Position numbers and translations under genes: made by a program
Assembly (NCBI GenBank): GCA_945874825.1
Contig: CAMCIK010000004.1
Location: 4,606-68,605 of the forward strand
Direction of reading: 5' to 3'
DNA: 64,000 bases
Source: Phenylobacterium deserti
GTDB taxonomy: Bacteria; Pseudomonadota; Alphaproteobacteria; Caulobacterales; Caulobacteraceae
Notes under the pieces: generated by a model
Seen by the model: the letters and a program-made list of their open reading frames with translations, nothing else
Told to the model about the DNA's origin: nothing
Databases searched by the model: none
Shown here: positions 22,931-55,139 of the stretch, one piece after another
How positions within the stretch are numbered: the first letter of the stretch is position 1
Layout of the letters: every line of letters begins with the position of its first letter

Positions 22931-23317
22931 TCAGGCCCTTGAGCCGTCCCCGCCAAACACCGCCTCGTAGGTCTCGGGCCTGAAGCCGAGCACCCGCCGA
23001 TCCCCCAGATCGAGCAGGGGGCGTTTGATCATCGAGGGCTGGGCCACCATCAGGGCTATGGCCTTGGCCGCGTCGAGATCAGTCCGGTCGGCTTCGGGCA
23101 GTTTGCGGAAGGTCGTGCCTGCGCGGTTCAGGACCTTTTCCCAGCCCAGTTCCTCAACCCACTGACCCAGACGATCAGCGTCAATGCCTTGGGTCTTGTA
23201 GTCATGAAAGTCATAGGCGATGCCTCGGTCCGCCAGCCAGGCGCGGGCCTTGGCCACCGTGTCGCAGGCCTTGATGCCATAGAGGGTGGCGGCGGGGATG
23301 AGGGTGGGCAGTCGCAT
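22931..23317 (-). CDS. ArsC/Spx/YffB family reductase-like protein
   Basis: Only the last 128 codons of track ORF 22931..23917 look real. MRLPT...LYGIKACDT...FHDY...MIKRPLL is the YffB/ArsC-family pattern. Confidence 0.8.
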   Translation of the reverse strand: MRLPTLIPAATLYGIKACDTVAKARAWLADRGIAYDFHDYKTQGIDADRLGQWVEELGWEKVLNRAGTTFRKLPEADRTDLDAAKAIALMVAQPSMIKRPLLDLGDRRVLGFRPETYEAVFGGDGSRA

Positions 23318-23340
23318 CAGGGAGCTCCGGGGGGATGGTC

Positions 23341-23718
23341 TCAGGCCGTGGTCACGAAGGTCTCGGATTCGATCATCCACTGACCCGTGACCCGGCGCCA
23401 GACCGCGAGGTAGGGACCCGACTGGGACGGAGCATCCTTCCAGCTCGCCGTCCAGCGGCCCTGCTCGGCGGCGCGATCTCCCGCTGCATCCACCTCGATG
23501 TGCTCGGGCGTGCGGACATAGCCGCCGAAGCCGGGGTCTGCGAACTGGGCGGCGAAGGCAGAGAGGATGGCGTCTCGGCCGGTGATGACCGATCCGTCGC
23601 CGGCGATGACCACCGCCGCGGGCAGGAAGACCGGCCCGAGGCGCGCGGCCTCCCGCCCGGCGATGAACCGGTTGCTCAGCCGCCGCCGGGCGCGAATGGC
23701 GTCTTCGGGGGGGATCAC
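23341..23718 (-). CDS. SnoaL-like / DUF4440 (NTF2-fold) protein
   Basis: 125 aa. The pattern ...G.W.ASW....G.YLAVWRR..G.W.I is typical of DUF4440. The start overlaps the upstream stop. Confidence 0.6.
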   Translation of the reverse strand: MIPPEDAIRARRRLSNRFIAGREAARLGPVFLPAAVVIAGDGSVITGRDAILSAFAAQFADPGFGGYVRTPEHIEVDAAGDRAAEQGRWTASWKDAPSQSGPYLAVWRRVTGQWMIESETFVTTA

Positions 23719-24704
23719 GACCCGAAGGGCTCGACCACGACCGTGCCGGCCTTGGTCCCGGACTCCACCTGCTCATGGGCAGCCGCGCAGTCCGCCAGGG
23801 CATGGCGGCCGGCCACGGGCAGGAGCCGGGCACCCGTGGAGATCCATTGCAGGATGTCGGCCTGGGCCCGGCGGCGGGCCTCGTGCGGGCTGACCGGCAG
23901 GTAGACGCCGTGGACATTGAGGTTGAGGCGCATCAGCTCCCCGGCCGGGACCGTCGGCGAGGGCTCGCCCTTCGTCGCGTAGAAGGCCACTGACCCATTG
24001 CCCTTCATGCAGGCCAGGGTGGCGGCCAGGTTGCCGCCGAAGTCCACGTCGACCACATGGTCCACCCCGGCGCCGCCAGTGAAGTCCCGGACCCGGGCGG
24101 CGACATCCTCCGAGCGGTAGTTGACGACCAGGTCGGCGCCCGCCGCCTGCGCCCTGGCTGCCTTGGCCTCGCTGCTGACGGTGGCGATGACCGTGGCTCC
24201 CGCCCACCTGGCCAGCTGGACGGCGTAGAGGCCCACCGCACCGGCACCCCCGGTGACCAGGACGGTCCGTCCCTGCACGGGTCCGGCGACGAAGACGCTG
24301 CGGTGGGCGGTCATGCAGGGAATGCCCAGGGTCGCGCCCTCTGAGAAGGATACGGCGTCGGGAAGGGGCGTCACGAGGTCGGCGTCGAGCTCGATGTATT
24401 CCGCCGCCGAGCCAAAGGCCCGGCCGTTCCTCTGACCGTTGTAGAACCAGACCCGGCGGCCGAGCCAGCGGGCCGGCGTCTCCGGGCCTACGGCCTCGAC
24501 CACTCCGGCACCGTCGCTGTTCGGGATGATGCGCGGATAGGCCATGGGGGCGGGACCGGCCCGCATGCCGGCGTCCGAGGGGTTGACCCCGGAGGCGTGG
24601 ATGCGGATCAGCACCTGCCCCCGGCCAGGGCTCGGGGTGGGAACCTCGCCGTGCTGCAGGACCTCCCGGGCAGGGCCGGTGCGCTCGTACCAGACCGCCT
24701 TCAT
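23715..24704 (-). CDS. NADPH:quinone oxidoreductase (MDR, zeta-crystallin type)
   Basis: 329 aa. GVNPSD and the VLVTGGAGAVG Rossmann motif. Confidence 0.85.
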   Translation of the reverse strand: MKAVWYERTGPAREVLQHGEVPTPSPGRGQVLIRIHASGVNPSDAGMRAGPAPMAYPRIIPNSDGAGVVEAVGPETPARWLGRRVWFYNGQRNGRAFGSAAEYIELDADLVTPLPDAVSFSEGATLGIPCMTAHRSVFVAGPVQGRTVLVTGGAGAVGLYAVQLARWAGATVIATVSSEAKAARAQAAGADLVVNYRSEDVAARVRDFTGGAGVDHVVDVDFGGNLAATLACMKGNGSVAFYATKGEPSPTVPAGELMRLNLNVHGVYLPVSPHEARRRAQADILQWISTGARLLPVAGRHALADCAAAHEQVESGTKAGTVVVEPFGS

Positions 24705-26217: not shown

Positions 26218-27030
26218 CTAGACCTCGCTGAGGAAACTCCGGACAGCGAGAAGGTAGGCCGGGAAGTTCTCCCGGCGGACATTGTGCCCTGCCCCCTCTA
26301 TGCGAAGCGCCCGAAGGTCGGTGTTGATCTCGCGGGCCTCCCTCGCCTCGGCCGCTCCGACCAGGCTTCCCCTTTCAGCATCTCCGTAGATGAGGAGGCT
26401 CGGCGCCCGGATCCGGCGGATGTCCGCCTGCCAGGGGGTGGGAAGGATCGGAAGGGCGTTCCTGGAGACCTGCTGCTTCGAGGCGATCCAGGCGGGGAAC
26501 TCCTGCGTTTCCCAGGTCGGCGACTGCCGTCGCCCGAGGGCCATCAGCTCGGCTTCGGTCATGTCGTGTAACTGCCTCACCTGGTCCTTGAACCGCGCCA
26601 GCCGCTTGGCGGCCGTCTCGGCATCCATGGGCGGGACCAGGGGTGGGTCCTCGAGGATGACGGCGCGGATGAGGTCGGGGAATTCCGCCGCACAGGCGGC
26701 GGTCGCCCGGGCGCCCATCGAGTGGCCCATGGCGATCACACCCGACAGCTCAAGGGCCCTGATAGCCTCGGCGATGTCCCGGCCGGGCATGTCCGGGGAG
26801 ATTCCCGCCTCGCCAGGCCGCGAGCTTGCCCCATGTCCCCGGGCGTCCAGCAGGATGAGGTCGTACTCGGGGGACAGGGCCTCGGCCAGGCGAGCCCAGC
26901 AGAGGCCGTTGTCGGTCAGGCCGTGTGAGAGGACGATGGGCGGCCCCCCGCCTCCGGTCCGGTGATAGGCCAGCCGCCCTCCGGTGACCTCGACCTCGCC
27001 GGAGGGCCAGTCCAATCGATTGGTCACCAT
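26218..27030 (-). CDS. alpha/beta hydrolase
   Basis: 270 aa. HGLTDN oxyanion region and nucleophile elbow GHSMGA. Last gene of the selB-side gene string. Confidence 0.85.
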   Translation of the reverse strand: MVTNRLDWPSGEVEVTGGRLAYHRTGGGGPPIVLSHGLTDNGLCWARLAEALSPEYDLILLDARGHGASSRPGEAGISPDMPGRDIAEAIRALELSGVIAMGHSMGARATAACAAEFPDLIRAVILEDPPLVPPMDAETAAKRLARFKDQVRQLHDMTEAELMALGRRQSPTWETQEFPAWIASKQQVSRNALPILPTPWQADIRRIRAPSLLIYGDAERGSLVGAAEAREAREINTDLRALRIEGAGHNVRRENFPAYLLAVRSFLSEV

Positions 27031-27151
27031 GCATACGCCTCGGGAGCTGCGCCACAGGCTGGGAAGATCGCATCGAGCCGGACCAGGGCGGACTCGTCAA
27101 GGTCCAACCCCGGTGCCTGCAGGAGGGCGGCGAACTGGTCCCGGCGCCCGG

Positions 27152-27670
27152 TCAGAGGGTCAGGGCCGCCACGACCTGGTCGACAACGGCCTGCGCCTTG
27201 GCGCGCATTTCGTCATCGGTGGCATCCTGGATCGGGTGATCCACCAGAAGGTAGCGCGCACCCTCCATGCCCAGCGCCCGGCGCTGGACCTCGGCGGCCT
27301 CAGCGAACTCGCTGGAGGCGATGGAGACGGCGGGAAGCCCCTGGATTTCGAACCATACAGTGTCGTGCAGACTGCACGTCGTGCAGGATCCTCAATCGGC
27401 GAGGGCTTCCACCAGGACGCTGCACTCCGCCTTGATCTTCAGCCGCAGGTCCGTGGGACAGGGCTTTGTGAAGGTCGGCTTGGCGTAGCGTCGGATCTCA
27501 TTGTCCGGGAAGCGGGCGGCCAGCAGGCGCTCCAGCTCGTCCAGGAGCACATTACCCCGGGGCTTGCTGATGTCCAGAAGGCCGATCACGCCCGGGATGC
27601 TTCCTGTTCGTGGAGTGATCTGGCGCTCGACGGGCACACGCTCGTCGGTCGGATCCAGGATTGTGGTCAT
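27152..27670 (-). CDS. UGSC-motif selenoprotein (172 codons, Sec at codon 93 encoded by UGA 27394..27392)
   Basis: Track ORF 27392..27670 stops at TGA. The same frame stays open for 79 more codons (GSCTTCSLHDTVWFEIQGLPAVSIASSEFAEAAEVQRRALGMEGARYLLVDHPIQDATDDEMRAKAQAVVDQVVAALTL) to TGA 27154..27152. GGAGGA SD lies 6 nt before the ATG. Hairpins follow the UGA, and selB, tRNA-Sec and selA are adjacent. Confidence 0.75.
27362..27394 (-). promoter_or_regulatory. UGA plus candidate bacterial SECIS hairpin(s)
   Basis: mRNA reads UGA GGAUC CUGCAC GAC GUGCAG UCUGCACGAC. Two alternative stems are possible: CUGCAC/GUGCAG (3-nt loop), or CGUGC/GCACG with loop AGUCU carrying a G-U about 22 nt after the UGA. 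Confidence 0.55.
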
Positions 27671-27701
27671 CGATGTCCTCCGAATTCCGGAATTGAGGCT
27701 A

Positions 27702-29288
27702 TCAGCAGTCGATCTTCCTGGAAACGACCGTTGAACCCATGGCGCCCGTGACCCAGCCGTGGAAGGCGGCCGAGAACTTCCCCGCCTCAGAACCCGCCAC
27801 GACGATGTGGATGTACTTGCCGTCGGCGAACTTCGGCACCGGAGTCGCGAGCATCTCCGCAGTCATCTTGGCGGCGGAGGCGACCGGGATCCCGGCGCCG
27901 GAGACGTCGTTGGACACCATCTCCCTCAGCGGCCTTGAGGTGACCTCCTGGATGCGGGCGCGGAGCCGGTCCTTGGGATAGGCCCCGTCGACGGTCAGCG
28001 TGTTGATATGCTCCGGACAGACCACCAGCAGGGCGTCCACGGGCATCCGGTGGATCTTGGGCAGGAACATGCCCTCCAGGCCCAGGCCCAGGGTCCCGGC
28101 GATCTGGTCGGGCCGGCGGGACTCCTGGTCGACGATCTGCACCGGGCCACTGGTCATGGCGAAGGCGGTGACTACCGAGTCCTCGCGCTGGAAGCCACGC
28201 TCCACGTGGAGGGGATCCCAGGGCGAGCCCTCCTCCCACTCGGCGAAGCACATGGTGAACTTCATGGGGCTGGAAAGGGTCGAGCGGTCGACGCCCCCGG
28301 GACGGGCCCCGCCAAGGTTGCGGACGACCAGGCGAAGCGCGCGGCCGATGGTGGCGTTGGCGCGGTTGCCGGCGCCCAGGGCGGCCAGCTTCATGTTCAT
28401 GCCGATCCGATGCCGGATCGGGCCGTTGACCACCAGGACGGGCGAGGCCCCCATGGTGGTGGCATTGACCCCATGCATGTTGAATTCGTCCGTACACACC
28501 GCCTCCAGGGCGGCGATCACCACGGGCAGGTATTCCGGCCGGCATCCGGCCATCACGGCGTTGATGGCCACCTTTTCCACCGTGGCCGGGGCCATGTTGG
28601 GCGGCACGATGGCGACAATGTCCTGCGGGTCCCGTGTCGTGCCCGCCAGCATGCGGATCACCCGCTCCGGCGTCGGCGGGACCAGGGGCAGGCCATCGCT
28701 GAAGCCCTGGTCGAACAGGAACTCGTCGATGTCGTCGGAACCGGCGATCTCGATGCGGCGAGCCCGGATCGGACTGCCCTCGGCCTCGGCCACCAGACGG
28801 TCATGGATGCCGGGATCGAGATGCTTGGAGCCGCACCCCGGCCGCCAGTCCGGCAGTCCGGTCCAGTCCACCTGGGGCACCGGCGTCCCGAGCGCCTCGG
28901 AAACCTGCGCGGACAGGGCCTGCCACTCGGCCTTGACGAAGCCCTCCATCACAGGGGCCGTCGCCCCCTCGGTGCCCGTCCAGAAGACTGCCGGAACGCT
29001 CTCGAAGTCCCAGGCCAGGGAGGTCCGCAGGGCACCGTCGTCGAGGATGGGCAGGGTCAGGCCGTGGCGATCGCGCAGGATCTCGGCTCCGTCCCGGGCC
29101 TGGGCGACCATCCAGACGTCGGCATGTTCGCCCCAGGCCTGATGAAAGGCCTCCAGCAGGGGCGCAACGAGGTTGCAGGTGGCGCAGTCCTCCTTGGCAA
29201 AGCAGATGAGGCTCGGCCGACCCGTGGGAAAGCTCCGCGATGTGCCGCCGAGGTCCTGGAGCGTGAAGGCGGGCGGGGTGTCGGTCAT
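27702..29288 (-). CDS. thioredoxin-fold (TlpA/redoxin-like, CxxC) domain fused to a ~390-aa domain of unknown function
   Basis: 528 aa. The N-terminus FTLQDLGG...SLICFAKEDCATCNLVAPLLEAF fits the redoxin pattern with C-A-T-C. I cannot assign the remainder (..DGLPLVPPTPERVIRML..AINAVMAGC..NMHGVNATTMG..) to a family. Confidence 0.8.
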   Translation of the reverse strand: MTDTPPAFTLQDLGGTSRSFPTGRPSLICFAKEDCATCNLVAPLLEAFHQAWGEHADVWMVAQARDGAEILRDRHGLTLPILDDGALRTSLAWDFESVPAVFWTGTEGATAPVMEGFVKAEWQALSAQVSEALGTPVPQVDWTGLPDWRPGCGSKHLDPGIHDRLVAEAEGSPIRARRIEIAGSDDIDEFLFDQGFSDGLPLVPPTPERVIRMLAGTTRDPQDIVAIVPPNMAPATVEKVAINAVMAGCRPEYLPVVIAALEAVCTDEFNMHGVNATTMGASPVLVVNGPIRHRIGMNMKLAALGAGNRANATIGRALRLVVRNLGGARPGGVDRSTLSSPMKFTMCFAEWEEGSPWDPLHVERGFQREDSVVTAFAMTSGPVQIVDQESRRPDQIAGTLGLGLEGMFLPKIHRMPVDALLVVCPEHINTLTVDGAYPKDRLRARIQEVTSRPLREMVSNDVSGAGIPVASAAKMTAEMLATPVPKFADGKYIHIVVAGSEAGKFSAAFHGWVTGAMGSTVVSRKIDC

Positions 29289-29333
29289 GGATCCGTCCTC
29301 AGGGTCGCAAGGCTACCGGCCCGGAGGCCGGGC

Positions 29334-29428
29334 TGGCGGAGGTGGATGGGAATCGAACCCACCACACGCCGGTGAGGCGTGTCACCGGTTTTGAAGACCG
29401 GGGAAGCCACCAGACTCCAGTCACCTCC
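29334..29428 (-). tRNA. selC: tRNA-Sec (anticodon UCA)
   Basis: 95 nt: GGAGGTGACTGGAGTCTGGTGGCTTCCCCGGTCTTCAAAACCGGTGACACGCCTCACCGGCGTGTGGTGGGTTCGATTCCCATCCACCTCCGCCA. Anticodon loop CTTCAAA (TCA = 29394..29392), long variable arm ACACGCC/GGCGTGT, GTTCGATTCC T-loop, encoded CCA. Confidence 0.9.
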
Positions 29429-29441
29429 ATCGCCCGCAACA

Positions 29442-31382
29442 CTAGTGCGGGATCGGCGGCGTACCGAAGCGCTTTCTTTGGGTGACGACCTGGCGGGAGT
29501 CCCCACGACGGACTGTATCCCCCCGGGAGTCGAGGAACTCCAGGGCCGGGACGATGAACTTGCGGGAGGTGGAAAGGGCCGCCCGGGCCTCGCCGGTAGT
29601 GAATTCCGCCGGCGGCGGGAAGGCCGCCTCCAGGTCCGAAAGGGCGGCGTCCAGGGCCTCTATGTGGAAGACCAGGGTCTGGCGCAGGGCGTGGTTGCGC
29701 AGGGAGACCAACCGTCCGGACTCCACCAGCAAGCCGAGGAGAACTGCGGACTCCCCCTCGGCGACGAGGCCGGCGGCGTCCGGCGGGTTCATGCCGCCCT
29801 CCCGCAGGGCGGTCTCGATCTCCCCGAGGCGGGACAGCTGGGCCGGCGACAGGGCGGCGAAGGGGTCATGGTCCTTCAGGGCCGCCTGGCCGCGCACGAT
29901 CCGGATCCCGCCCTCGGCGACGAGCCGACCCTCCACATGGGCGATGAGGTCCCGGGACAGGATTCGTTGCAGGCCGCCACGAAGGGCACCGAGGGCGACG
30001 AAGGCCCGGGTCGGCTGGGCCCGGTGGGCGTCGGCCAGCCGGTCGAGATAGGCCTGAGCGGCCGCCTCCACGGCGGACTCCTGTGCAAAGAGGCCGTCGT
30101 CGAGGCGAACAAGCCTCTCAGCCAGTCGCGAGCGGACCTCTTCGATGGGCGCGCGCGAAAGACAGGCCGCCTCGGCCACGGACACCGCACCGCCGTCCCG
30201 CCCGGCGAGGGCTGCGGCGATGTCCTCCAACCCGCCCTGTACGACAGCGAGCAGGAGGTCGCGGCGGGCCTCCAGGGTCCGGGCCCGGAGCTGGGGGGCG
30301 ACGGGGTCCAGCACCCGGCCGCCGCCCAGGGTCCCGGCGGGCGAGGGCCGGCGGAGCAGGAGGCGCTGGCCGGCATGGGCGGGGACGGGGCCACTGAAGC
30401 GGAGCTGGACCAGACCCGAAGATCCGGGCTCCAGTGGGGCCCCGCCAATGAGGCGCGCCCGGGCAAGGTCCTGGCGTGCGCCCCAGAGCACGCGCACCTC
30501 GTCCCCGGATCGAAGTGGCCGGGCAGCCTCCGGCGAGAGATCGACCTCCAAATCCACCCTCACTGTCGGCGGAAAGCTGCCGGGGCTGCAAAGGACCTCG
30601 CCGACCCTCACCTCGTCCGGCGAGACCCCGCGCAGGGCCGCCGCGGCCCGGCCGCCGGCGGGTGCCGTCGGGACCGCCTGGCCATGGACCTGCAGCTGGC
30701 GCAGGTGGACCGTGCGGCCGGAGGGCTCCAGGACCGCCTCGTCCCCCACTTCGAGGTCCCCACCCTGCAGGGAGCCGGTAACCACGGTTCCCGTTCCGGC
30801 CAGGCTGAAGACCCGGTCGAGGGGCAGGAAGGCGCCGGGCAGGCGCTCAGGCGGGGGGGTCCGGAGGGCCAGGGCGTGGATCTCGCGGTTGAGGGTCCCA
30901 AGCCCCTCCCCGGTCACGGCCGAGCAGAAGACGACGGGTGCCGTCGCCAGGAAGCTTTCTTCCAGTTCGGCCATCAGCCGGGCCCGGAGGTCAGTGCGCG
31001 CCTCCGGCGGGACGAGGTCAGCCTTGGTCACGGCCACCAGACCGTCCCTGAGGCCCAGGAGGCTAGCGATCCTGAGATGCTCGCGGGTCTGCCGGCCGAA
31101 GCCCTCAACCGCGGAAACCACCAGCAGGACTGCCCGGGCACCGGCGGCGCCCATGACCATGGCGCGGATGAAGTCCTCGTGGCCGGGAGCGTCCAGGAAG
31201 TCGACGTCACCGTCAGGGTCCTCGCGGAAGGCGAAGCCCAGGGCGATGGAGAGGCCCCTCGCCTTCTCCTCCGGCAGCCGGTCCGTCTCCATGCCGGTCA
31301 GGGCGCGGACCAGGGCCGTCTTGCCGTGGTTGACGTGCCCGATCACCGCCAGGCCAAGGGGTGGAGGCGGGGCGGCGGTCAC
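29442..31382 (-). CDS. selB: selenocysteine-specific translation elongation factor SelB
   Basis: 646 aa. GTPase motifs GHVNHGKT, DAPGHEDF and TKAD, followed by long winged-helix-type C-terminal extensions. Adjacent to tRNA-Sec and selA. Confidence 0.9.
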   Translation of the reverse strand: MTAAPPPPLGLAVIGHVNHGKTALVRALTGMETDRLPEEKARGLSIALGFAFREDPDGDVDFLDAPGHEDFIRAMVMGAAGARAVLLVVSAVEGFGRQTREHLRIASLLGLRDGLVAVTKADLVPPEARTDLRARLMAELEESFLATAPVVFCSAVTGEGLGTLNREIHALALRTPPPERLPGAFLPLDRVFSLAGTGTVVTGSLQGGDLEVGDEAVLEPSGRTVHLRQLQVHGQAVPTAPAGGRAAAALRGVSPDEVRVGEVLCSPGSFPPTVRVDLEVDLSPEAARPLRSGDEVRVLWGARQDLARARLIGGAPLEPGSSGLVQLRFSGPVPAHAGQRLLLRRPSPAGTLGGGRVLDPVAPQLRARTLEARRDLLLAVVQGGLEDIAAALAGRDGGAVSVAEAACLSRAPIEEVRSRLAERLVRLDDGLFAQESAVEAAAQAYLDRLADAHRAQPTRAFVALGALRGGLQRILSRDLIAHVEGRLVAEGGIRIVRGQAALKDHDPFAALSPAQLSRLGEIETALREGGMNPPDAAGLVAEGESAVLLGLLVESGRLVSLRNHALRQTLVFHIEALDAALSDLEAAFPPPAEFTTGEARAALSTSRKFIVPALEFLDSRGDTVRRGDSRQVVTQRKRFGTPPIPH

Positions 31383-31509
31383 CGGATGTGTCCCGGATGG
31401 AGGCGGCGCATGAAGACTCCCTACGTCGAACCGGGGCCGAGGTCATCCGCCTCGCTTGCCCGGCGTCGCCCCGCCTCCCTATAGTCCGGACCGGAGAGGG
31501 AGACGCGTC

Positions 31510-32970
31510 GTGACGCTGAGGACCCCGAAGGCCGCCCGACCGGACCCCCGCCGCCGCCTCCCGGCCGTGGGCACCCTCTGTGATGACCCCGTCGCCCGGC
31601 CGCTGAAGGCCCGGTACGGCGCCGCAGCCCTGACCCGCGTCGTCCGCGCCGTCCTGGCCGAGGCCCGGACCCGCCTCGCCGCCTACCCCGACGTCCTGCC
31701 GACGACCGGTGCCCTCCTGGAAGCCGTAGAGGCGCGGTTGGCCGAGGGTGTCCGCGAGACCCTCTTCCCGGTGATCAACGCCACCGGCGTGGTGATCCAC
31801 ACCAATCTCGGCCGGGCACCCCTTGCGCCGGAGGCGATGGCGGCGGTGGCGGCGGCGGCGGGCTACGCCAACCTGGAGCTCGACCTCGACACCGGCCGGA
31901 GGTCCTCACGACAGGCGCACCTCGATCCCCTGATCGCCGAGATGACCGGTGCCGAGGCGGGAATGGCGGTGAACAACTGCGCAGGCGCCGTGCTGCTGGC
32001 CCTGGCCGCAGTGGCGAAAGGGGCACCGGTCATCGTCTCCCGGGGCGAGCTTGTGGAGATTGGCGGCGGCTTCCGCATACCGGACGTGGTGGCCCAGAGC
32101 GGCTCGCGCCTGGTCGAGGTCGGGACCACGAACCGGACCCATCTGCGCGACTACGAGATGGCCCTGGCCGACCATCCGGACGCCCGGGTCCTCCTGCGCA
32201 CCCACCCCAGCAACTTCCGGATCCTGGGCTTCACCAGTGCCCCGTCCCTGGAGAGCCTGGCCCACTTCGCCCATGCCCACGGTCTTCTGCTGGTGGAAGA
32301 TCTGGGGGGCGGCGCCCTCGTGGACCTCTCGCCGTTTGGCATCCCGGACGAGCCGACCGTCCAGGCCAGTCTCACGGCGGGCGTGGACCTGGTGCTCATC
32401 AGTGGGGACAAGCTGCTGGGCGGGCCCCAGGCCGGCATCGCCGCCGGGCGCCGGGCCCTTGTCGACCAGCTGGAGGCCCACCCCCTGGCCCGGGCCCTGC
32501 GGCTGGACAAGCTGTCGGCGGCCGCCCTCGCCGCCACCCTGCGGCTCTATCGCCCACCGTCCGACCCCTTCCAGCGGATTCCCGTCCTGCGCCTGCTGGC
32601 CCAGGACGCCGGAACGCTGAGTGCCCGGGCGAAGGACCTCAGGGCGCGGGTCGAAGGTCTTGCGGACCTCGAGACGGAGATCATCGACACCGAGGGCTTT
32701 GCCGGCGGCGGGGCCCTGCCCATGCGGGCCCTGCCTGGCCGGGCCCTCGCCCTCAGCCACCTGCGTTTCAGCGCAGAAGACCTCGCGCTTCGCCTGCGCA
32801 CCGGACCAACCCGGGTGCTGGGACGGATCGAGCAGGACCGGGTCCTCATCGACCTGCGGACCGTCGACGACGCAGAGGTTCCGGCCCTGGCCGAGGCGAT
32901 CGGCGCGGCGGCGGGGGAAATCAGCGACCTTGTGCGACGTTGTCCCGAGGTGCCCCCTTCCCTCGCCTGA
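31510..32970 (+). CDS. selA: L-seryl-tRNA(Sec) selenium transferase SelA
   Basis: VINATGVVIHTNLGRAPL and the PLP-lysine region ISGDKLLGGPQAG. Track ORF starts at TTG 31456. GTG 31510 has GGAGAGGGAG 8-10 nt upstream, so the start is uncertain. Confidence 0.9.
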   Translation: MTLRTPKAARPDPRRRLPAVGTLCDDPVARPLKARYGAAALTRVVRAVLAEARTRLAAYPDVLPTTGALLEAVEARLAEGVRETLFPVINATGVVIHTNLGRAPLAPEAMAAVAAAAGYANLELDLDTGRRSSRQAHLDPLIAEMTGAEAGMAVNNCAGAVLLALAAVAKGAPVIVSRGELVEIGGGFRIPDVVAQSGSRLVEVGTTNRTHLRDYEMALADHPDARVLLRTHPSNFRILGFTSAPSLESLAHFAHAHGLLLVEDLGGGALVDLSPFGIPDEPTVQASLTAGVDLVLISGDKLLGGPQAGIAAGRRALVDQLEAHPLARALRLDKLSAAALAATLRLYRPPSDPFQRIPVLRLLAQDAGTLSARAKDLRARVEGLADLETEIIDTEGFAGGGALPMRALPGRALALSHLRFSAEDLALRLRTGPTRVLGRIEQDRVLIDLRTVDDAEVPALAEAIGAAAGEISDLVRRCPEVPPSLA

Positions 32971-33059
32971 GGTGTGGGGACATATGCTCGGCAGGGACCT
33001 GGTCCCAGGCCGCTTCGTGCCGATCACGGGATCAGAGGGGCGTTGTGCCAGAATCCGGG

Positions 33060-34244
33060 ATGTTCCCGCCGACCCGCCAAGCCGCCCTGGAGCGTCTCGC
33101 CGGCTTTGTCCCGGCGGCGGGACGCGCCTATGCGGAGGGGCGAAACCTGGACCCGGGCCCCGGTGAACCGGGCGCGGTCTCGCGGCTTTCCCCCTACCTT
33201 CGCCACAGGGTGATCTCAGAGGCCGAGGTGGTCGATGCGGTCCTGCAGGCCCAGGGTTCCGCCGGTGCGGACAAGTTTATCCAGGAGGTGTTCTGGCGCA
33301 CCTACTGGAAGGGCTGGCTGGAAATGCGGCCTTCCACCTGGTCGCGGTTCCTCGAGGCCCGCGACCGCCAATGGGATGGCCTGGCGGACTCGCGCGCCCT
33401 CGCCGACGCCGAGGCGGGCAGCACCGGCATCGAGGGCTTCGACGACTGGGCCCGCGAACTCGCCCAGACCGGATACCTGCACAATCATGCGCGCATGTGG
33501 TTCGCCTCGATCTGGATCTTCACCCTGCGCCTGCCCTGGGCCCTGGGGGCGGATCTCTTCCTCCGCCGGCTCGTCGACGCCGACCCGGCCAGCAACACCC
33601 TGTCCTGGCGGTGGGTCGCGGGCCTCCAGACCCCGGGAAAGACCTACCTGGCGACCCGGGAGAATATCGCCCGCTTCACCGGGGGCCGCTTTGCGCCCTC
33701 GGGCCTGGCGACGCAGGCCCCTCCCCTGGTGGAGCCCGCGCCCGAACCCCCGGCGGGCCTTCCTTCCGCCGCCAGCACCCCGCCTCCGGGACCCTACCTG
33801 TTGCTGACGACGCCGGAGGACCTGACCCCCGACCTCGGAGGGATCGACCCGGCGAGGGCGGCCGCCGCGGTCGTCACGCCGGATCCCCGCCTGTCGTTTG
33901 GCGAGACCGCCCGCGAGTTCATGGCCGGCGCCGCGATGGACGCGGCCGATCGCCTGGCCGGGCGAGTGGAGGGGCCTGTAACCCTCCTGGACCGCCTCGA
34001 CGCTGGGTCCCTGGTCGCGGCAGCCCAGGCGGCGCAGGTGCGGACCCTTGTCACTCCCTATGCGCCTGTAGGCCCCACGGCGGACGCCCTGGCGCAGGCC
34101 GCGCGGGGCCTTGAGGCCGAGGGCCTGCACCTCATCCAGGTCCGCCGGGAATGGGACACCCGCTTCTGGCCCTACGCGACGGCGGGCTTCTTCGCCTTCC
34201 GCAAGCAGATTCCAGCCTTGCTGGAACAAGAGAGGTCCCGGTGA
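33060..34244 (+). CDS. photolyase FAD-binding-domain protein (photolyase-related, atypical domain order)
   Basis: ATG 33060 within track ORF 32940..34244. SRLSPYLRHR...FWRTYWKGW...YLHNHARMWFASIW...NTLSWRWVAG is the photolyase FAD-binding domain, placed at the N-terminus. Confidence 0.65.
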   Translation: MFPPTRQAALERLAGFVPAAGRAYAEGRNLDPGPGEPGAVSRLSPYLRHRVISEAEVVDAVLQAQGSAGADKFIQEVFWRTYWKGWLEMRPSTWSRFLEARDRQWDGLADSRALADAEAGSTGIEGFDDWARELAQTGYLHNHARMWFASIWIFTLRLPWALGADLFLRRLVDADPASNTLSWRWVAGLQTPGKTYLATRENIARFTGGRFAPSGLATQAPPLVEPAPEPPAGLPSAASTPPPGPYLLLTTPEDLTPDLGGIDPARAAAAVVTPDPRLSFGETAREFMAGAAMDAADRLAGRVEGPVTLLDRLDAGSLVAAAQAAQVRTLVTPYAPVGPTADALAQAARGLEAEGLHLIQVRREWDTRFWPYATAGFFAFRKQIPALLEQERSR

Positions 34245-35779
34245 GCCGTCCCCTGCAGGTCGTCTGGTTCAAGCGCGACCTGCGCATCGCCGACCACCGC
34301 CCTCTGGCCCTCGCCGCCGAAGCCGGGCCGGTGCTGCCCCTCTACATTGTTGAGCCAGGGCTCTGGGCCCAGGCGGACGCCTCAGGAAGGCAGTGGGCCT
34401 TTGCAGCGGAATGCCTCGGCGAGTTGGCGGCTTCGCTGGCCCAGCTGGGCCAGCCCCTGCGGGTCGAGGTCGGCGAGGCGCTGAAGGTGCTGGGCCGGAT
34501 TCACGAGCGTCACGGTATCGCCGGCCTCTGGAGCCACGAGGAGACTGGAAACGGCTGGACCTACGCTCGGGACCTGGCCGTTGGCGCCTGGTCGAAGGCG
34601 GCTGGTATCCCCTGGCGCGAGGAACGCCAGTTCGGTGTGATCCGCCGCCTGAAGTCGAGGAATGGCTGGGCCCAGGCCTGGGACCGGGACATGTCCAGGC
34701 CGCTGACGCCCTCGCCCGAGGCGCTTGTTCCCCTCGGCGGCGACTGGCCGGGTCGCATTCCATCAGCGGCCAACCTCGGCCTTGCGTCCGATCCCTGTCC
34801 TCATCGCCAGAAGGGCGGGCGCAGTGCTGCGCTGGAGGTTCTGGACAGCTTCCTCTCCTGGCGCGGCCGCGACTACCGCCGGGAGATGTCGAGCCCGCTC
34901 ACGGCCTACGGGTCCAGTTCGCGGCTCTCGCCCCACCTCACCTGGGGAACGATCTCCATGCGGGAAGTCGCCCAGGCCACCTGGGCGCACCAGCGGGGGC
35001 TCCGGACGTCGAGCGCACCCGACGCCGGACTGTGGCGGGGGTCCCTGGCCTCTTTCTCGGGACGCCAGCACTGGCGTTGTCACTTCGTCCAGAAGCTGGA
35101 GGACGAGCCCCGAATCGAGTTCGAGAACCTGCACCGCGCCTACGACGGCGTGCGCCCCAGCCAGGCTGATCCTGACCGCCTAGAGGCCTGGAGCCAGGGC
35201 CTGACCGGCTATCCCTTCCTCGACGCCTGCATGCGGGCGCTGGACGCCCATGGCTGGATCAACTTCCGCATGCGCGCCATGCTGATGTCCTTCGCCAGCT
35301 ATCACCTCTGGCTTCCCTGGCGGGAGAGCGGCCTGCACCTGGCGCGGAAGTTCGTGGACTATGAGGCGGGAATCCACTGGCCCCAGGTACAAATGCAGTC
35401 CGGCACGACGGGCATCAATACCCTCCGGATCTACAACCCCGTAAAGCAGGGCCACGATCAGGATCCCAAAGGTACCTTCGTCCGGGCCTGGGTTCCCGAG
35501 CTTGCGGCCGTCCCGGACGCCTTCGTCCATGAGCCCTGGCGATGGGAGGGGGCGGCGGACCTTGCCTATCCCGCCCCGATCGTCGAGAATGCTTCCGCGA
35601 TGCGGGCGGCCCGGGAAGCCCTTCACGCTCTGCGGCGCGACAGCCGCCACAAGGGCGCGGCACGGGTCATCGCCGCCCGCCACGGAAGCCGAAAGTCCGG
35701 TTTGCCAGGGGCGGGGGACCGCCGGCGGGGCCGGGCCAAGCCCGCTGAAGGCGTCCAGCTGTTGCTGAACCTCGAATAG
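34241..35779 (+). CDS. cryptochrome/photolyase family protein
   Basis: GTG 34241 overlaps the upstream stop (GTGA). VVWFKRDLRIADHRPL N-terminal alpha/beta domain, later SRLSPHLTWGTIS and FVDYEAGIHW..QMQSG motifs. Confidence 0.8.
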   Translation: MSRPLQVVWFKRDLRIADHRPLALAAEAGPVLPLYIVEPGLWAQADASGRQWAFAAECLGELAASLAQLGQPLRVEVGEALKVLGRIHERHGIAGLWSHEETGNGWTYARDLAVGAWSKAAGIPWREERQFGVIRRLKSRNGWAQAWDRDMSRPLTPSPEALVPLGGDWPGRIPSAANLGLASDPCPHRQKGGRSAALEVLDSFLSWRGRDYRREMSSPLTAYGSSSRLSPHLTWGTISMREVAQATWAHQRGLRTSSAPDAGLWRGSLASFSGRQHWRCHFVQKLEDEPRIEFENLHRAYDGVRPSQADPDRLEAWSQGLTGYPFLDACMRALDAHGWINFRMRAMLMSFASYHLWLPWRESGLHLARKFVDYEAGIHWPQVQMQSGTTGINTLRIYNPVKQGHDQDPKGTFVRAWVPELAAVPDAFVHEPWRWEGAADLAYPAPIVENASAMRAAREALHALRRDSRHKGAARVIAARHGSRKSGLPGAGDRRRGRAKPAEGVQLLLNLE

Positions 35780-47775: not shown

Positions 47776-48861
47776 ATGCCGTCTGAGACCGCCACCCTTT
47801 CCGGCCGTACGGGAGCCACCGTCGAATGCCTCACCCTGCGCCGGCCAGACGACTGGCATGTGCACCTGCGCGACGGTGCCATGCTGGCCTCGGTGGTCGA
47901 CTACACGGCCCGGCAGTTCGGCCGCGCCATCGTCATGCCCAACCTCAAGCCGCCGGTGACCACCGTCGCCGCCGCCCGGGCCTACCGCGAGCGTATCCTG
48001 GCGGCAGTGGAGCCCGGCCTCGAGTTCACGCCCCTGATGACCTGCTACCTCACCGACGGGATGGACCCGGGCGAGGTGGAGCGTGGCTTCGCAGAAGGCG
48101 TCTTCACGGCCTGCAAGCTTTATCCGGCGCACGCCACCACCAACTCCGCGGCGGGCGTCACGGACGTGCGTCACATCCACAGCGTGCTGGAGGCCATGGA
48201 GAGGATCGGCATGCCCTTGCTGATCCATGGCGAGGTCACCGACCACGAGGTCGACATCTTCGACCGGGAGGCCGTCTTCATCGACCGGGTTCTCCGCAAG
48301 CTCGTTGCAGACTTCCCGGCCCTGAAGGTGGTGTTCGAGCACATCACCACGGCGAATGCCGTCGCCTTCGTCGAGGCCTCGGGGCCGAACGTGGCGGCGA
48401 CCATCACCCCGCACCACCTGGCCATCAATCGCAACGCCATGTTCGAGGGCGGGATCCGACCGCACTTCTACTGCCTGCCCATCGCCAAGCGCGAGCCGCA
48501 CAGGCTGGCCCTGTGCAGGGCCGCCATCTCCGGCTCGCCCAAGTTCTTCCTCGGCACCGACTCGGCGCCGCACCCGGTGGGCGACAAGGAGACGTCCTGC
48601 GGATGCGCTGGCATCTTCAACGCCCCCTTCGCCCTGGAAAGTTATGCGGCGATTTTTGAGGCGGAAGGGGCCCTGGACCGGCTGGAGGCCTTCGCCTCGG
48701 AGAACGGCCCGCGCTTCTACGGCCTGCCCCTGAACACCGGGACCGTGACCCTTGAGCGGCGCACTGTGCCAGTTCCCGAGGTTCTAAAGCTGACGGCGGC
48801 CGACCTCGTTCCCTTCCACGCAGGTGAAGCGCTGGGCTGGAGCCTCGTCAGCGCCGGCTGA
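47776..48861 (+). CDS. pyrC: dihydroorotase (homodimeric type)
   Basis: ATG 47776 preceded by [24 protein letters not shown] and later FLGTDSAPH motifs. Confidence 0.9.
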
Positions 48862-48980
48862 GCGGGTGGACTGCGTGGCTTCCAGGATCGGAGGCGACAC
48901 GCCGACATACTGGCCAGGAAGGCGGCAGCGCGCCCAAGCCCCCACCGTTGAACCGGCCCGGCCGGGCTGATCACAGTGGG

Positions 48981-48998
48981 GGCTCGTCGCGACGAGCC
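48981..48998. terminator. perfect 18-bp palindrome between convergent pyrC and the TonB receptor
   Basis: GGCTCGTCG/CGACGAGCC ending 3 nt from the receptor stop codon. A second GCCCGG/CCGGGC palindrome lies about 20 nt away. Confidence 0.45.
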
Positions 48999-49001
48999 TG
49001 C

Positions 49002-51389
49002 CTAGTACTTGATGGAGAAGGCGGCACCGAAATAGCGGGGCTCGCCAGCGATGAAGGTCGGGATCCCGAACGCACCGCCCGTGTTACCAGCATCCTTGAT
49101 GTATTCTTGATCCAACAGGTTGGAGACGAAACCTTCCACCCTCCAGTTCGCATTGGTCGGCTGGTAGGAAACACGAAGGTTCAAGAGGCCGTAGGGATCC
49201 TGATATTCATCCTGGACCCTGTCACCTGTGCTCTGAAGCGCCGGAATGTCGTTGTCGTTGTCAAAGAAAACCTTTGATTGCCACGTATAGGTGGGAAGGA
49301 AGACAAGATCTCCTTCCAGAATTTGGAAACTGTATTTCAGTCCGAACGAGACAGTATGATCCGGAGAGAGACGGAAGCTGTTGCCCTCGAAGCGCCCATT
49401 ATCAAATCGGCCATTATTGAAACCGTAGGTGCCAAAGACCATCAGCTCGCGAACCGGCTTCCAGTTTACCTGACCCTCAAAGCCTGTTGCGGAGGCATCC
49501 CCAGCGCTAATCGTCTGGAATACGCCTGGAGAGACCTGAATGCTCGTCTGGAAGTTCGTATACGAGAACTGATAGATTGACCCCTCAAGGGAGAGGCGAC
49601 GGTCGAGCCATTGGGTCTTCGCCCCGGCTTCGTAGGAGTCGACGATCTCGGCGGCGACGGGAGTGAAGCGGGCATTGCCTTGCGGCGCCGCCGGCGCGCC
49701 CGGCGACAGCACCTCGGGACGCCGACCGCGGGAGTGGGTGACGAAAAGGCTGATATCATCGGACACGGAGTAACGGCCCACGATCCGATAGGTCACGCCC
49801 GAGTCGGAGAAGGACTGGTACTGGGGAAGGCCCCCCGGCGTGGACTGCAGGAAGATGCCACGGGCGGTGGCCGGATTGGCCGCGGCGGCCGCAGAGCCGC
49901 TGGTCAGGACAGAGCCGCCATTGTCGAGTGTACCGCGGTACCCGGACCTCTTTTCGTCGCTGCTGTAGCGCACGCCAGCCGAGACCTCGAACTGGTCGGT
50001 AAACTTGTACGTGGCATCGGCGAACACATCGTACGAGGTCGTGCGACCATAGTTCTCGAAGGTCTCGCGATGGACCAGCTTCAGCGTGCTGAGGGCCGCC
50101 GCTGAGTTGATGGTGTCGATCGCCGGGACGTTTGGCGGCGTGAAGCCGAGCTGGCCGGCAAGGGCCGGCGTGGTGCGCGCCGCGAACACGCGCTCATTGT
50201 ACTGAAGCGGCACAGCCTGGGACCCGTCCTCGTGGAAGTATCCGACGCCGGCAAAGGCGCTCAAACGGGTGCCGCTATCGTAGTTGATGCGGAATTCCTG
50301 GCTGTACTGGTCGCCCCGAGCGTCCTCCGCGAAGACGAAGAGCGGAAGCGAGAAGCCGTCCGCGTCGAACACTTCCAAAGACTCGAAGCGGCGAAACGCG
50401 GTGATGGAAGACAGCCGGAGCGTATCGCTGAACTTGTATCCGACGAGCCCGGTGACGCCCCAGGTCGTCCGCTCCAGGCCGAGATCACGACCGCCTGAGA
50501 AGCCATCGCTGGAGGCCAGAGCCGCGCCGGAGTTCCGGCCCAGATCGCCAAGAACGCGGCCCGTAAGCGTATCGGTCGGAAGATAGGTCAACGACTTGAA
50601 CGATGTCCCGGTGGGGTTGTTCTCCTCGTAGTTGAGGATCAGGTCTGCATCGAGGTTTTCGCTCGGGCTCCACTTGAGGACCGCACGGTAGGCTGCGGTG
50701 TCTGTGGAATTGAAGTCCCGTCCACCCAGCAGGTTATCGACATACCCGTCGCGTGTCTTGACACGGCCCGCAAACCGGACCGCGAGGGTCGGGCTCAGCG
50801 GGAGATTGACCATCGCTTCGATGCCGCGGAAATCGTAGTTTCCGGCCTCAAACTTGGCGGCAGCGGCGAAGCCGCTGGGATCCGCCTTGTTCTGGACGAC
50901 GTTGACCGCGCCGAGCAGGGCGCTCCGTCCGAAGAGGGTCGACTGCGGTCCCTTGGCAATTTCAATCCGCGCGTTGTCGAAGAGTTCGATGTACGAGCCG
51001 CGGGACTTGGATATGGACACGCCGTCCTGGAAGACCGAGACGCGAGGCTCCACGGTGGCACCACCGTCATCGGAGGTGATGCCGCGAATGACAAATCCAG
51101 GATTATTTGGCGACTGGTTCTGGACCTCAAAGCCCGGGACAAAGAGGGACAGTTCCTCGAACTCCTGGACGCCGATCTCGTCCAGGAAGGTTCCGGTATA
51201 GGCGGTCAAGGCGATCGGGACGTCGAGGGTCCTCTGTTCGCGCTTCTGAGCGGTGACAATCAGTTCCTCAATATAGCCTTCTCCGGGCGCCCGAGCTCCG
51301 GAGACCTGCGCATGAGCGCCGGAAAAAGCGAGCAAGGCAGATGTGCACACCGTGCAAAAAACAAGTCCACGAACCGATCGACGCAACAT
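49002..51389 (-). CDS. TonB-dependent receptor
   Basis: ATG 51389 (GAGGGTG SD) gives a signal peptide ending AHA-Q. Plug region (ELIVTAQKREQ..DVPIAL), long beta-barrel and aromatic C-terminus (..FSIKY). GC is lower by eye than in the core. Confidence 0.88.
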   Translation of the reverse strand: MLRRSVRGLVFCTVCTSALLAFSGAHAQVSGARAPGEGYIEELIVTAQKREQRTLDVPIALTAYTGTFLDEIGVQEFEELSLFVPGFEVQNQSPNNPGFVIRGITSDDGGATVEPRVSVFQDGVSISKSRGSYIELFDNARIEIAKGPQSTLFGRSALLGAVNVVQNKADPSGFAAAAKFEAGNYDFRGIEAMVNLPLSPTLAVRFAGRVKTRDGYVDNLLGGRDFNSTDTAAYRAVLKWSPSENLDADLILNYEENNPTGTSFKSLTYLPTDTLTGRVLGDLGRNSGAALASSDGFSGGRDLGLERTTWGVTGLVGYKFSDTLRLSSITAFRRFESLEVFDADGFSLPLFVFAEDARGDQYSQEFRINYDSGTRLSAFAGVGYFHEDGSQAVPLQYNERVFAARTTPALAGQLGFTPPNVPAIDTINSAAALSTLKLVHRETFENYGRTTSYDVFADATYKFTDQFEVSAGVRYSSDEKRSGYRGTLDNGGSVLTSGSAAAAANPATARGIFLQSTPGGLPQYQSFSDSGVTYRIVGRYSVSDDISLFVTHSRGRRPEVLSPGAPAAPQGNARFTPVAAEIVDSYEAGAKTQWLDRRLSLEGSIYQFSYTNFQTSIQVSPGVFQTISAGDASATGFEGQVNWKPVRELMVFGTYGFNNGRFDNGRFEGNSFRLSPDHTVSFGLKYSFQILEGDLVFLPTYTWQSKVFFDNDNDIPALQSTGDRVQDEYQDPYGLLNLRVSYQPTNANWRVEGFVSNLLDQEYIKDAGNTGGAFGIPTFIAGEPRYFGAAFSIKY

Positions 51390-54280: not shown

Positions 54281-54283
54281 GCG

Positions 54284-55018: not shown

Positions 55019-55117
55019 GCCCGGTAACCTCCGATGTACGCGGAATCAGGCGTTCCGCCCTGACCTTCGCCGCGTCGTTCAGGATCGCTGTTCGGCCGAC
55101 CCCCGCCAATACCAATA

Positions 55118-55139
55118 CCTTTCCAACACTTCGGAAAGG
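55118..55139 (-). terminator. hairpin after the enolase-superfamily remnant
   Basis: CCTTTCC-8 nt-GGAAAGG about 13 nt after the stop at 55152, followed on the minus strand by a T-rich TATTGGTATT. Confidence 0.4.

Follow-up and report, generated by a model that had tools for sequence, protein, structure and literature searches.

Which protein is served by the selenocysteine (Sec) decoding genes of a Phenylobacterium deserti locus, and what might this protein do? The locus occupies positions 26,218-32,970 of a 64 kb stretch of contig CAMCIK010000004.1, which is referred to as the window. On the minus strand, selB is followed by tRNA-Sec, a gene for a 528-aa protein with a fused thioredoxin (Trx) domain, a 172-codon gene with an in-frame UGA and a gene for an alpha/beta hydrolase, with intergenic gaps from selB to the hydrolase gene of 13, 45, 31 and 121 nt. 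The gene order, the strands and the spacings of 13, 45 and 31 nt given in a preliminary description of this DNA were all correct to the base, and its 127-bp spacer between selB and the divergent selA holds if selA starts at the GTG at 31510. The nearest relatives of the locus were found on contigs of Phenylobacterium metagenome-assembled genomes (protein identity 92-97%). Our analysis indicates that the UGA gene encodes a selenoprotein of the UGSC family and that it forms a conserved two-gene unit with the gene for the 528-aa protein (the partner), for which a function as a Sec-dependent reductase is the reading that we favour.

The UGSC selenoprotein gene and its SECIS element

The UGA gene (27152..27670, minus strand) starts 31 nt past the 528-aa gene behind a GGAGGA Shine-Dalgarno sequence and codes for a protein of 19 kDa, the in-frame UGA being codon 93 (27392..27394, minus strand). 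With Sec written as Cys, the 172-aa product scored 168.5 bits against the UGSC family model NF041046 (cutoff 125) and 165.5 bits against PF24696 (cutoff 25). The active-site motif reads L-A-D-U-G-S-C-T-T-C-S-L-H-D, which is a UxxCxxC followed by H-D, and Sec93, Cys96, Cys99 and His102 stand at a three-residue spacing and are nearly invariant. In the homologs collected in the searches described below, TGA was present at the Sec codon in all 71 genome loci and all 80 metagenome loci (151/151), and all 151 carry the motif A-D-U-G-S-C-T-[T/S]-C-S-x-H. The reading frame 3' of the UGA is conserved over 79 residues (e.g., HPIQDATD). Most UGSC entries in the databases are only ~94 aa long, as would result from a gene caller halting at the UGA. 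Taken together, the family scores, the conserved TGA and the conserved downstream frame identify the UGA gene as a real selenoprotein gene of a catalogued family.

The region 3' of the UGA was inspected by aligning 69 distinct sequences from the UGA onward, with nucleotides numbered from its U. The alignment revealed a SECIS (Sec insertion sequence)-like hairpin (UGA and hairpin at 27354..27394, minus strand). The upper stem, formed by nt 17-22 (CGUGCA) and nt 26-31 (UGCA[C/U]G), is paired in 100% of the 69 sequences, with G18:C30 changed to G:U in 25 sequences and to A:U in one, and it encloses an apical loop of three nucleotides, G23-U24-C25. The lower stem (nt 10-15 with nt 36-41) is paired in 82% of the cells and shows double changes at 12:39 (U:A 26, C:G 7) and at 15:36 (C:G 24, G:U 14, G:C 11). 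As a codon control, neighbouring codons for the same amino acid were compared. Cys96 is encoded by TGT in 36 and TGC in 33 sequences versus TGC in 69 of 69 for Cys99; Ser95 uses all four TCN codons versus AGT in 69 of 69 for Ser100; and Thr97 uses all four ACN codons versus ACG in 64 of 69 for Thr98. Single-sequence folding 3' of the UGA gave no significant structure (z = -0.83), a test that is uninformative in DNA of 68% GC. Nucleotides 23-30 (GUCUGCAC) are identical in the UGSC gene and in Escherichia coli fdhF and lie at equal distance from the UGA; the fdhF SECIS used for this comparison was a 42-nt sequence found with 100% match under annotated fdhF in at least 5413 records. G23 and U24 are presumably the bases contacted by SelB according to the E. 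coli literature. The covariation, the frozen synonymous sites and the register shared with fdhF indicate that a bacterial SECIS element lies immediately 3' of the UGA.

Some database homologs differ at the Sec position. The full-length entries P0121-P0125 show G, W or R there (ADGGS, ADWGS, ADRGS). In the W entries the TGA seems to have been translated as Trp with an alternative code, and those with G or R may be either artefacts of the same sort or genuine substitutions. A Cys occupies this position in P0130 and P0168.

The preliminary description called the module uncharacterised and knew of no described function for it. This has to be corrected, since UGSC has been catalogued since 2007-2008 and is represented by NCBIfam and Pfam models. 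A UGSC-containing protein was first noted in Hyphomonas neptunium (PMC1976440), and the Global Ocean Sampling (GOS) metagenomes yielded 255 UGSC sequences with Sec versus 21 Cys homologs (PMC2398784). In that survey UGSC was a major family overall and ranked first among the selenoproteins of several non-marine GOS samples (PMC2398784). On the function of UGSC, a "UGSC family" description or its operon, the searchable literature contained nothing beyond catalogue entries. A sequence and profile search of the Protein Data Bank (PDB) with the UGSC profile found no relative.

Conserved pairing of UGSC with a partner domain

The 528-aa gene (27702..29288, minus strand) is preceded by a GAGGA Shine-Dalgarno sequence, and its product is composed of two domains. 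Residues 1 to ~140 (28869..29288, minus strand) form a TlpA/ResA-like thioredoxin-fold domain, which was modelled by AlphaFold2 (AF2) with a predicted local distance difference test (pLDDT) score above 90 and which matched ResA, DsbE and StoA in the PDB by Foldseek (E ~1e-7, TM(target) 0.74-0.83). This domain carries an invariant C35-A-T-C38; the subfamily with a fused Trx domain keeps C35-x-x-C38 and an invariant C152 in the linker (RPGCGS). The N-terminus MTDTPPAFTLQDLGGTSRSF, judged by reading the sequence, has no hydrophobic segment and thus neither a signal peptide nor a membrane anchor; a cytoplasmic location is therefore presumed. In the databases, the entire protein goes by the name "TlpA family protein disulfide reductase".

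Residues ~175-528 (27702..28766, minus strand) constitute an uncatalogued domain family, which we call the UGSC-partner domain. No Pfam or NCBIfam match was obtained for it, either with the window protein or with sets of 58 and 25 diverse homologs, and sequence and profile searches of the PDB revealed no relative. It is the best-conserved piece of the protein, with 47-64% identity between phyla. Invariant or nearly invariant positions are D198-G-L-P-x-x-P-P-T, A247-G248-C249, T277-T278, R309-A-N311 and G315-R316, as well as E350, E352, G365, P425-x-H427, G499 and G503. Among these, D198, L200, P201, A247-G248-C249, T278, R309, N311, R316, G365, G499 and G503 are invariant. An exhaustive search of representatives at 50% identity returned 5319 clusters, and the family occurs as a stand-alone protein of ~350 aa, as a Trx-fused protein of 470-550 aa and as a tandem double domain of ~710-740 aa. 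With a diverse alignment, AF2 modelled the 528-aa protein with a mean pLDDT of 93.9 and a predicted TM score (pTM) of 0.83, whereas with a shallow one (70-98% identity) the C-terminal domain had stayed below pLDDT 50. Foldseek searches of this full model against PDB and BFVD listed thioredoxin-fold matches only, from which it follows at most that the C-terminal domain has no PDB match surpassing E ~1e-7. The invariant Gly248-Cys249 lies between two predicted helices, and Cys249 would be an active-site Cys rather than a self-cleavage site.

The conservation of the gene pair was assessed from both sides. The 528-aa family was searched in one genome per species (GTDB), and the best 80 loci were taken with flanks of up to 10 kb. 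In 71 of them, a UGSC gene lies downstream of the 528-aa homolog on the same strand, mostly within ~150 nt and with a median gap of ~46 nt; downstream sequence is scant or missing in three of the nine exceptions. These genome loci belong to Alphaproteobacteria, Gammaproteobacteria (Pseudomonadales, OM182), Dehalococcoidia, Anaerolineae, Tepidiformaceae, Binatia, Myxococcota and Vicinamibacterales. Conversely, a scan of metagenomes with the UGSC profile gave 44 loci with at least 1700 nt of upstream sequence, and the partner gene is directly upstream of UGSC in 40 of these, further upstream in two and absent in two. Apart from the pair itself, and from the sel genes in loci of the alphaproteobacterial type, no third gene was generally conserved. 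A recurrence of this extent goes beyond chance and indicates that the locus is real and strongly conserved. The three-gene module of the preliminary description is upheld in the linkage of partner and UGSC (71/80; 40/44) and not in the hydrolase, so that the unit consists of two genes.

This near-obligate pairing extends to gene fusions. The partner domain and PF24696 were found in one polypeptide in 7 of 58 diverse partner homologs. P0278 and P0367 contain the partner followed by UGSC and end in ...ALAD or ...AAAD, where the UGA cuts the called open reading frame (ORF), and P0339 consists of the C-terminal half of UGSC followed by the partner. A fusion of UGSC to a domain termed "Unknown_1" had been noted in 2008; this is probably the same partner domain.

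Distant partner homologs (34-41% identity), sampled by genomic look-up, adjoin a UGSC gene in all six cases with enough flanking sequence, in either gene order; some of these pairs overlap by 1 or 4 nt and one locus carries tandem pairs. UGSC precedes the partner in L168, L169 and the contig of P0296, and the partner precedes UGSC with a 4-nt overlap in L170 and L171. In L161, partner and UGSC are followed by a CoA-transferase III gene (1-nt overlap), and a TrxB-like gene stands beside this Trx-less pair. The tandem arrangement (metagenome contig L162, 1-4638) comprises UGSC, partner, UGSC and a UGSC::partner fusion, followed by a family-5 solute-binding protein. Another metagenome contig (L167, 2235-5985) carries a partner with a doubled domain, a third paralog of the partner and a full-length UGSC of the Cys form, which reads D-C-G-S-C-S-T-N and has lost the third Cys. 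In P0274, the place of the N-terminal Trx domain is taken by a catalytic-chain domain of ferredoxin:thioredoxin reductase (FTR) with the motifs CPC..CPC..CHC (PF02943, E = 2e-21), and a UGSC gene lies 4 nt upstream of the P0274 gene. Since two unrelated disulfide-reducing modules occupy it, the N-terminal position appears to deliver reducing equivalents, and this exchange is the strongest indirect evidence for such a role.

The sel genes, the hydrolase gene and the rest of the window

The selA, selB and tRNA-Sec components of a Sec-decoding system are all present and intact in the window. selA, encoding L-seryl-tRNA(Sec) selenium transferase (31510..32970, plus strand), scored 512.4 bits against TIGR00474 (cutoff 267.9) and matched PF03841 with E = 8.9e-130. 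Its start was placed at GTG 31510, which is preceded by the Shine-Dalgarno sequence GGAGAGGGAG; the mechanical ORF starts at TTG 31456. The Sec-specific elongation factor SelB (646 aa; 29442..31382, minus strand) scored 267.9 bits against TIGR00475 (cutoff 242.25) and contains the domains GTP_EFTU, Beta-barrel_SelB and SelB-wing_3. The tRNA-Sec gene (selC; 29334..29428, minus strand; anticodon TCA) was identified by ARAGORN and by Rfam (RF01852, 77 bits with a gathering threshold of 47, E = 4.4e-14); it begins 13 nt past the selB stop, and the 528-aa gene begins 45 nt past the tRNA. By tblastn, no SelD-like sequence was found in the window, which therefore lacks this component of the system.

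Formate dehydrogenase and glycine or proline reductase genes had been reported absent from the neighbourhood, in agreement with Pfam scans of ~44 further ORFs spread over the 64 kb, which detected no formate dehydrogenase, Grd, Prd or selD gene. No convincing further gene with an in-frame TGA was found in the window either.

The physical tie between Sec machinery and client proposed in the preliminary description recurs in related loci. tRNA-Sec lies immediately 5' of the partner gene, with selB and selA alongside, in 24 genome loci (L001-L011, L013-L021, L023, L024, L028, L071) and in 16 metagenome loci. These are the loci most similar to the window, and nearly all are labelled Alphaproteobacteria. 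Their commonest order is a co-directional selA-selB-selC-partner-UGSC; selA is inverted in the Phenylobacterium group, to which the window belongs. In six loci of the alphaproteobacterial type (L009, L011, L015, L018, L019, L023), a selD homolog within 10 kb of the module completes selABCD plus the pair. In the 52 other loci that have the pair, no sel genes lie within 10 kb; among them are loci from Gammaproteobacteria, Chloroflexota, Binatia, Myxococcota and Vicinamibacterales, and also L012 (labelled Marinibacterium). The wiring of the module to sel genes is thus real in window-like loci and lineage-specific (0/52 elsewhere), and it fits co-inheritance of the decoding trait with its main or only client. 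One sel-linked locus, L017 (CAMDAC010000011.1), is labelled "Candidatus Sulfopaludibacter sp. SbA3" (Acidobacteriota) and has the alphaproteobacterial-type order selA-selB-selC-partner-UGSC; its local arrangement and coordinates closely match those of the Hyphomonas locus L028, which suggests mis-binning or recent transfer.

It is plausible that selB, selC, the partner gene and UGSC are co-transcribed, as the gaps measure 13, 45 and 31 nt and no terminator-like site intervenes in the series from selB to the hydrolase gene. In the promoter and terminator scan of the locus, sites were no commoner than in shuffled sequence. A promoter-like TTGCCC-18-TATAGT lies at 31456-31485. A GC-rich inverted repeat, CCGGCC-UCC-GGGCCGG, lies directly 3' of tRNA-Sec and before the Shine-Dalgarno sequence of the 528-aa gene (29289-29333, minus strand). 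It lacks a T-run and might serve for processing or attenuation between selC and the client genes.

The alpha/beta hydrolase (270 aa; 26218..27030, minus strand) matched PF00561 (E = 1.9e-22) and PF12697 and had no NCBIfam match at equivalog level. It had been counted as a member of the module, a view that did not survive the comparison of loci. Only L001, L081 and L082 have a hydrolase homolog downstream of UGSC; these loci are each 97-99% identical to the window and therefore count as a single evolutionary event. Save for a weak, distant match in L060, no other genome locus and no other partner-bearing metagenome locus has it beside the module. The hydrolase gene is a lineage-specific, incidental neighbour. 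The 121-nt spacer in front of it (27031-27151, minus strand) is common only to L001, and one of its frames reads ...DQFAALLQAPGLDLDESALVRLDAIFPACGAAPEAYAW and then a stop, which we take to resemble the C-terminus of an aldo/keto reductase; the spacer may be what is left of a gene that disappeared as the hydrolase gene arrived at this place. In two metagenome loci, L126 (165-956) and L127 (2-700), an alpha/beta hydrolase resembling that of the window (found by tblastn at E <= 1e-5 in L126 and by inspection in L127) lies ~600 nt upstream of a partner-less UGSC gene, with a PAS-domain-like ORF on the opposite strand in between. This might reflect a loose association of hydrolase and UGSC, or chance, since the fold is so common.

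The remaining scanned ORFs of the window are housekeeping and transport genes, including prfA, prmC, clpB, secA, a DEAD helicase, photolyase-like genes and ATP-binding cassette (ABC) transporters, besides a TonB-dependent receptor and a penicillin amidase recognized by Pfam. Just 3' of selA, two slightly overlapping ORFs of the photolyase/cryptochrome family occupy 32940-34244 and 34151-35779 (plus strand), the former matching FAD_binding_7 only and the latter DNA_photolyase and FAD_binding_7. A mechanical ORF of 328 aa (22931-23917, minus strand) has an ArsC-family domain confined to its last ~110 residues and overlaps a Zn-dependent dehydrogenase gene (23715-24704); the true ArsC/Spx-family gene is probably about 115 codons long, near 22931-23280. 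ArsC-like proteins are selenoproteins in some organisms, and no UGA was seen in this ORF. The segments 48000-52000 and 54000-60000 have a lower G+C content (63-65%) than the rest of the window (68-72%). They hold the TonB-dependent receptor (49005-51434, minus strand), several ORFs without a Pfam match and a 244-aa ORF (54287-55018, minus strand) with a TonB Plug domain only, which may be a truncated receptor.

Proposed function and relation to known systems

We consider it reasonably probable that UGSC and its partner act as a Sec-dependent thiol/selenol reductase with a built-in recycling domain, encoded beside the sel cassette that serves it. In this scheme, the two proteins would form a physical complex with the Sec93-x-x-Cys96-x-x-Cys99 of UGSC as the reactive centre. 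The partner domain, in which Cys249 is invariant and Asp, Thr, Arg and Asn residues are conserved, would bind the substrate. The selenolate would attack the substrate and end as a Se-S bond with Cys96, Cys99 or Cys249, and this bond would be reduced by the N-terminal TlpA-like CxxC domain, fed by the thioredoxin/NADPH pool of the cell. In other lineages, recycling would be carried out by the FTR-like domain or by a separate thioredoxin system. The relay from a CxxC to the UxxC that had been suggested for this locus is in line with the fusions, with the Trx-less partners that still adjoin UGSC and with the exchange of the Trx domain for an FTR-like one. The gene contexts of the paralogs and the tandem pairs suggest a small organic catabolite as the substrate rather than a peroxide or a bulk antioxidant duty. 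Acyl-CoA dehydrogenase genes lie near the pair in 25 of the 80 loci, and other recurring neighbours are CoA-transferase III, AMP-ligase, Dpp/Opp-type ABC components, family-5 binding proteins, M20 peptidases, TauD-family dioxygenases, a luciferase-like oxygenase and regulators of the IclR, LysR and Crp families. This catabolic context is a weak clue, because the neighbour families are highly paralogous and one gammaproteobacterial group shares synteny.

The loose analogy to glycine reductase drawn in the preliminary description has a concrete basis in the UxxCxxC that UGSC has in common with GrdB/F/H (PMC6778437, citing Wagner 1999; PMC13188914). UGSC reads U-G-S-C-T-T-C, and the PrdB sequences retrieved read T-[A/G]-G-U-G-T-C-H-R. 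No match of UGSC to the selenoprotein B family PF07355 was obtained at E <= 0.01. Profile comparison of UGSC with PrdB by hhalign placed the Sec columns in register over 72-136 columns (P ~0.005). The alignment further takes in the strand before the Sec site, an E-x-x-G-[I/L]-P-x-[V/I] strand behind it and, upstream, a segment reading [L/I]-D-R-L-x-E-L. The score was 25.6, versus 12.4 for a reversed control, at most 19.7 in 20 column shuffles and 14.8 and 18.6 for unrelated profiles. Homology of UGSC and PrdB is suggested by this comparison and not established. A PrdB structure was not found in the PDB. On the side of the partner, no family member matched PF09338 (PrdA/GrdE). The partner was also considered as a PrdA/GrdE-like pyruvoyl proenzyme; this was rejected as unsupported, given that hhalign found no similarity to PrdA or PrdB, and a pyruvoyl mechanism of the Grd/Prd type is for the same reason not indicated.

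Several observations weigh against a two-protein Sec-dependent reductase and its likeness to selenoprotein B. Six genome loci with adequate flanks have a 528-aa homolog and no UGSC within 10 kb, and some UGSC genes have no partner nearby (e.g., L123, L140, L126, L127). A hairpin follows tRNA-Sec, between the decoding genes and their proposed clients. The partner domain has no detectable relative of known function, and the Trx domain swamped the fold searches of the full model in PDB and BFVD. The HH probability of the UGSC/PrdB alignment is only 7.5-8.4%, and with the nine motif residues masked the score fell to 18.3 (P = 0.073), the register being unchanged. For the partner, hhalign against PrdA from three prd-operon sequences gave P = 0.29 and a probability of 0.2%, and against PrdB P = 0.08. 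Acyl-CoA dehydrogenase-type neighbours are highly paralogous, so that their adjacency may partly be chance or shared synteny. A 2026 review places UGSC among largely uncharacterised families (PMC13188914). Finally, the U-x-x-C-x-x-C-x-x-H pattern could equally be a metal or metalloid site.

Four other explanations of the locus were weighed. UGSC and the fusion protein might together be a general system for antioxidant defence or for maintaining thiols and disulfides (e.g., a peroxidase, disulfide reductase or isomerase), in which Sec resists over-oxidation and the 350-aa domain is a scaffold or sensor. The N-terminal domain does resemble the TlpA, ResA and AhpC/TSA group (distant homologs matched PF00578 in eight cases and PF08534 in seven), UxxC is usual in redox selenoproteins, the hosts live aerobically, and UGSC is placed with thioredoxin-fold oxidoreductases in the literature, where the family is also described as very abundant in surface waters (PMC2398784). 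Such a duty nevertheless sits badly with a partner domain that is conserved better than the rest and has invariant polar residues and a Cys of its own, with the rarity of Cys-form relatives and with the lack of a peroxiredoxin-type catalytic motif; moreover, tandem paralogs in catabolic clusters with regulators and transporters are the pattern of substrate-specific enzymes. We regard this explanation as unlikely. If anything slightly less likely still is a module that handles selenium, sulfur, a metal or a metalloid (selenide or selenite for SelD; Hg, As, Cu), with U-x-x-C-x-x-C-x-x-H as ligands. It would explain the place in the sel operon, beside or between selA, selB and selC in 24 genome and 16 metagenome loci and adjacent to selD in six, as well as the nearly invariant series of Sec93, Cys96, Cys99 and His102; an ArsC-family gene also lies 3 kb away in the window. 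However, the sel genes are never within 10 kb in the 52 loci beyond the window-like ones, the paralog arrays and the Cys-form variant of L167 without the third Cys speak against a fixed metal site, and the operon linkage is equally explained by co-inheritance of the trait with its main client.

A functional module of three genes, in which the Trx-fusion protein, UGSC and the hydrolase act on one substrate, is very improbable: the hydrolase gene is on the same strand with no terminator-like site before it, keeps its position in L001, L081 and L082 and has a relative upstream of the partner-less UGSC in L126 and L127, but it is beside the module in no other genome locus or partner-bearing metagenome locus, its three occurrences trace to one evolutionary event, and the spacer looks like leftover coding sequence. 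That the UGA gene is a pseudogene or a chance pair of ORFs, with the sel genes serving another selenoprotein elsewhere in the genome, has practically no probability left. The insignificant single-sequence fold 3' of the UGA would agree with it, and the TGA at the equivalent codon in 151 of 151 homologs across phyla, the 79 conserved residues that follow, the covarying SECIS with its frozen synonymous sites and the score above the curated-model cutoff speak against it. The pseudogene alternative that the preliminary description had left standing is thereby refuted.

Within the favoured reading of a Sec-dependent reductase, a more far-reaching version can be put forward tentatively and is, in our estimate, doubtful: UGSC and its partner may be an unrecognised class of two-subunit selenoenzymes, an aerobic counterpart and possibly a very distant relative of protein B of the glycine, betaine and proline reductases, which would cleave abundant dissolved organic compounds reductively, each paralogous pair acting on a different substrate. 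If so, this class would explain the abundance of UGSC among the selenoproteins of fresh and marine waters and the presence of a Sec-decoding cassette beside a single client in Caulobacterales, Hyphomonadaceae and roseobacters. Should the analogy to selenoprotein B be true, aerobic plankton would also carry out reductive C-N or C-X cleavage, a chemistry known until now from the anaerobic Stickland fermenters.

Compared with the searchable literature, the near-obligate partner domain as a large uncatalogued family, the interchangeable reductant module and the UxxCxxC parallel to selenoprotein B appear to be new; the embedding in a sel operon in loci of the alphaproteobacterial type and the extension of the motif to UxxCxxC-x-x-HD were likewise not found there. 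UGSC is thus to be seen as part of an enzyme system with a specific 350-residue partner and a dedicated reductant domain rather than as an orphan protein. The pair is a defined target for expression, structure determination and substrate screening, by which the function of an abundant aquatic selenoprotein becomes directly testable. In addition, the alphaproteobacterial-type selA-selB-selC-partner-UGSC arrangement could be a compact unit for acquiring Sec coding plus one client.

The window protein shares motif, length and aquatic aerobic hosts with the UGSC family of Zhang and Gladyshev (NF041046/PF24696), and no difference at family level was seen. As in the E. coli sel cluster and the fdhF SECIS, selA, selB and selC are present, the hairpin starts ~10 nt past the UGA and G23-U24 is in the apical loop. 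Unlike in E. coli, UGSC rather than fdhF is the client, and selC is placed between selB and this client; three nucleotides form the apical loop versus four in fdhF, a bulged U17 is not evident, and an unpaired A16 parts the two stems. With TlpA, ResA and DsbE the 528-aa protein shares the fold and the CxxC of its N-terminal 140 residues. It differs from them in having no export signal, in the C-A-T-C that replaces the usual W-C-x-x-C and in that three quarters of the protein are an unrelated domain ignored by the database name.

The comparison with GrdB/F/H and PrdB reaches further into the organization of the system. In both, a small or medium Sec subunit is encoded beside a larger subunit without Sec, Sec stands in a U-x-x-C(-x-x-C) that ends a beta-strand, the reductant is a dithiol and the pairs have paralogs for other substrates. 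In contrast to selenoprotein B, the profile similarity of UGSC is below significance, the partner is unrelated to PrdA/GrdE, and GrdA, GrdC and GrdD genes are absent. The UGSC hosts are aerobes and not Stickland fermenters, and the reductant domain is fused to the partner in place of a free thioredoxin. By analogy, the UGSC system would resemble selenoprotein B in outline while standing outside the Grd and Prd families.

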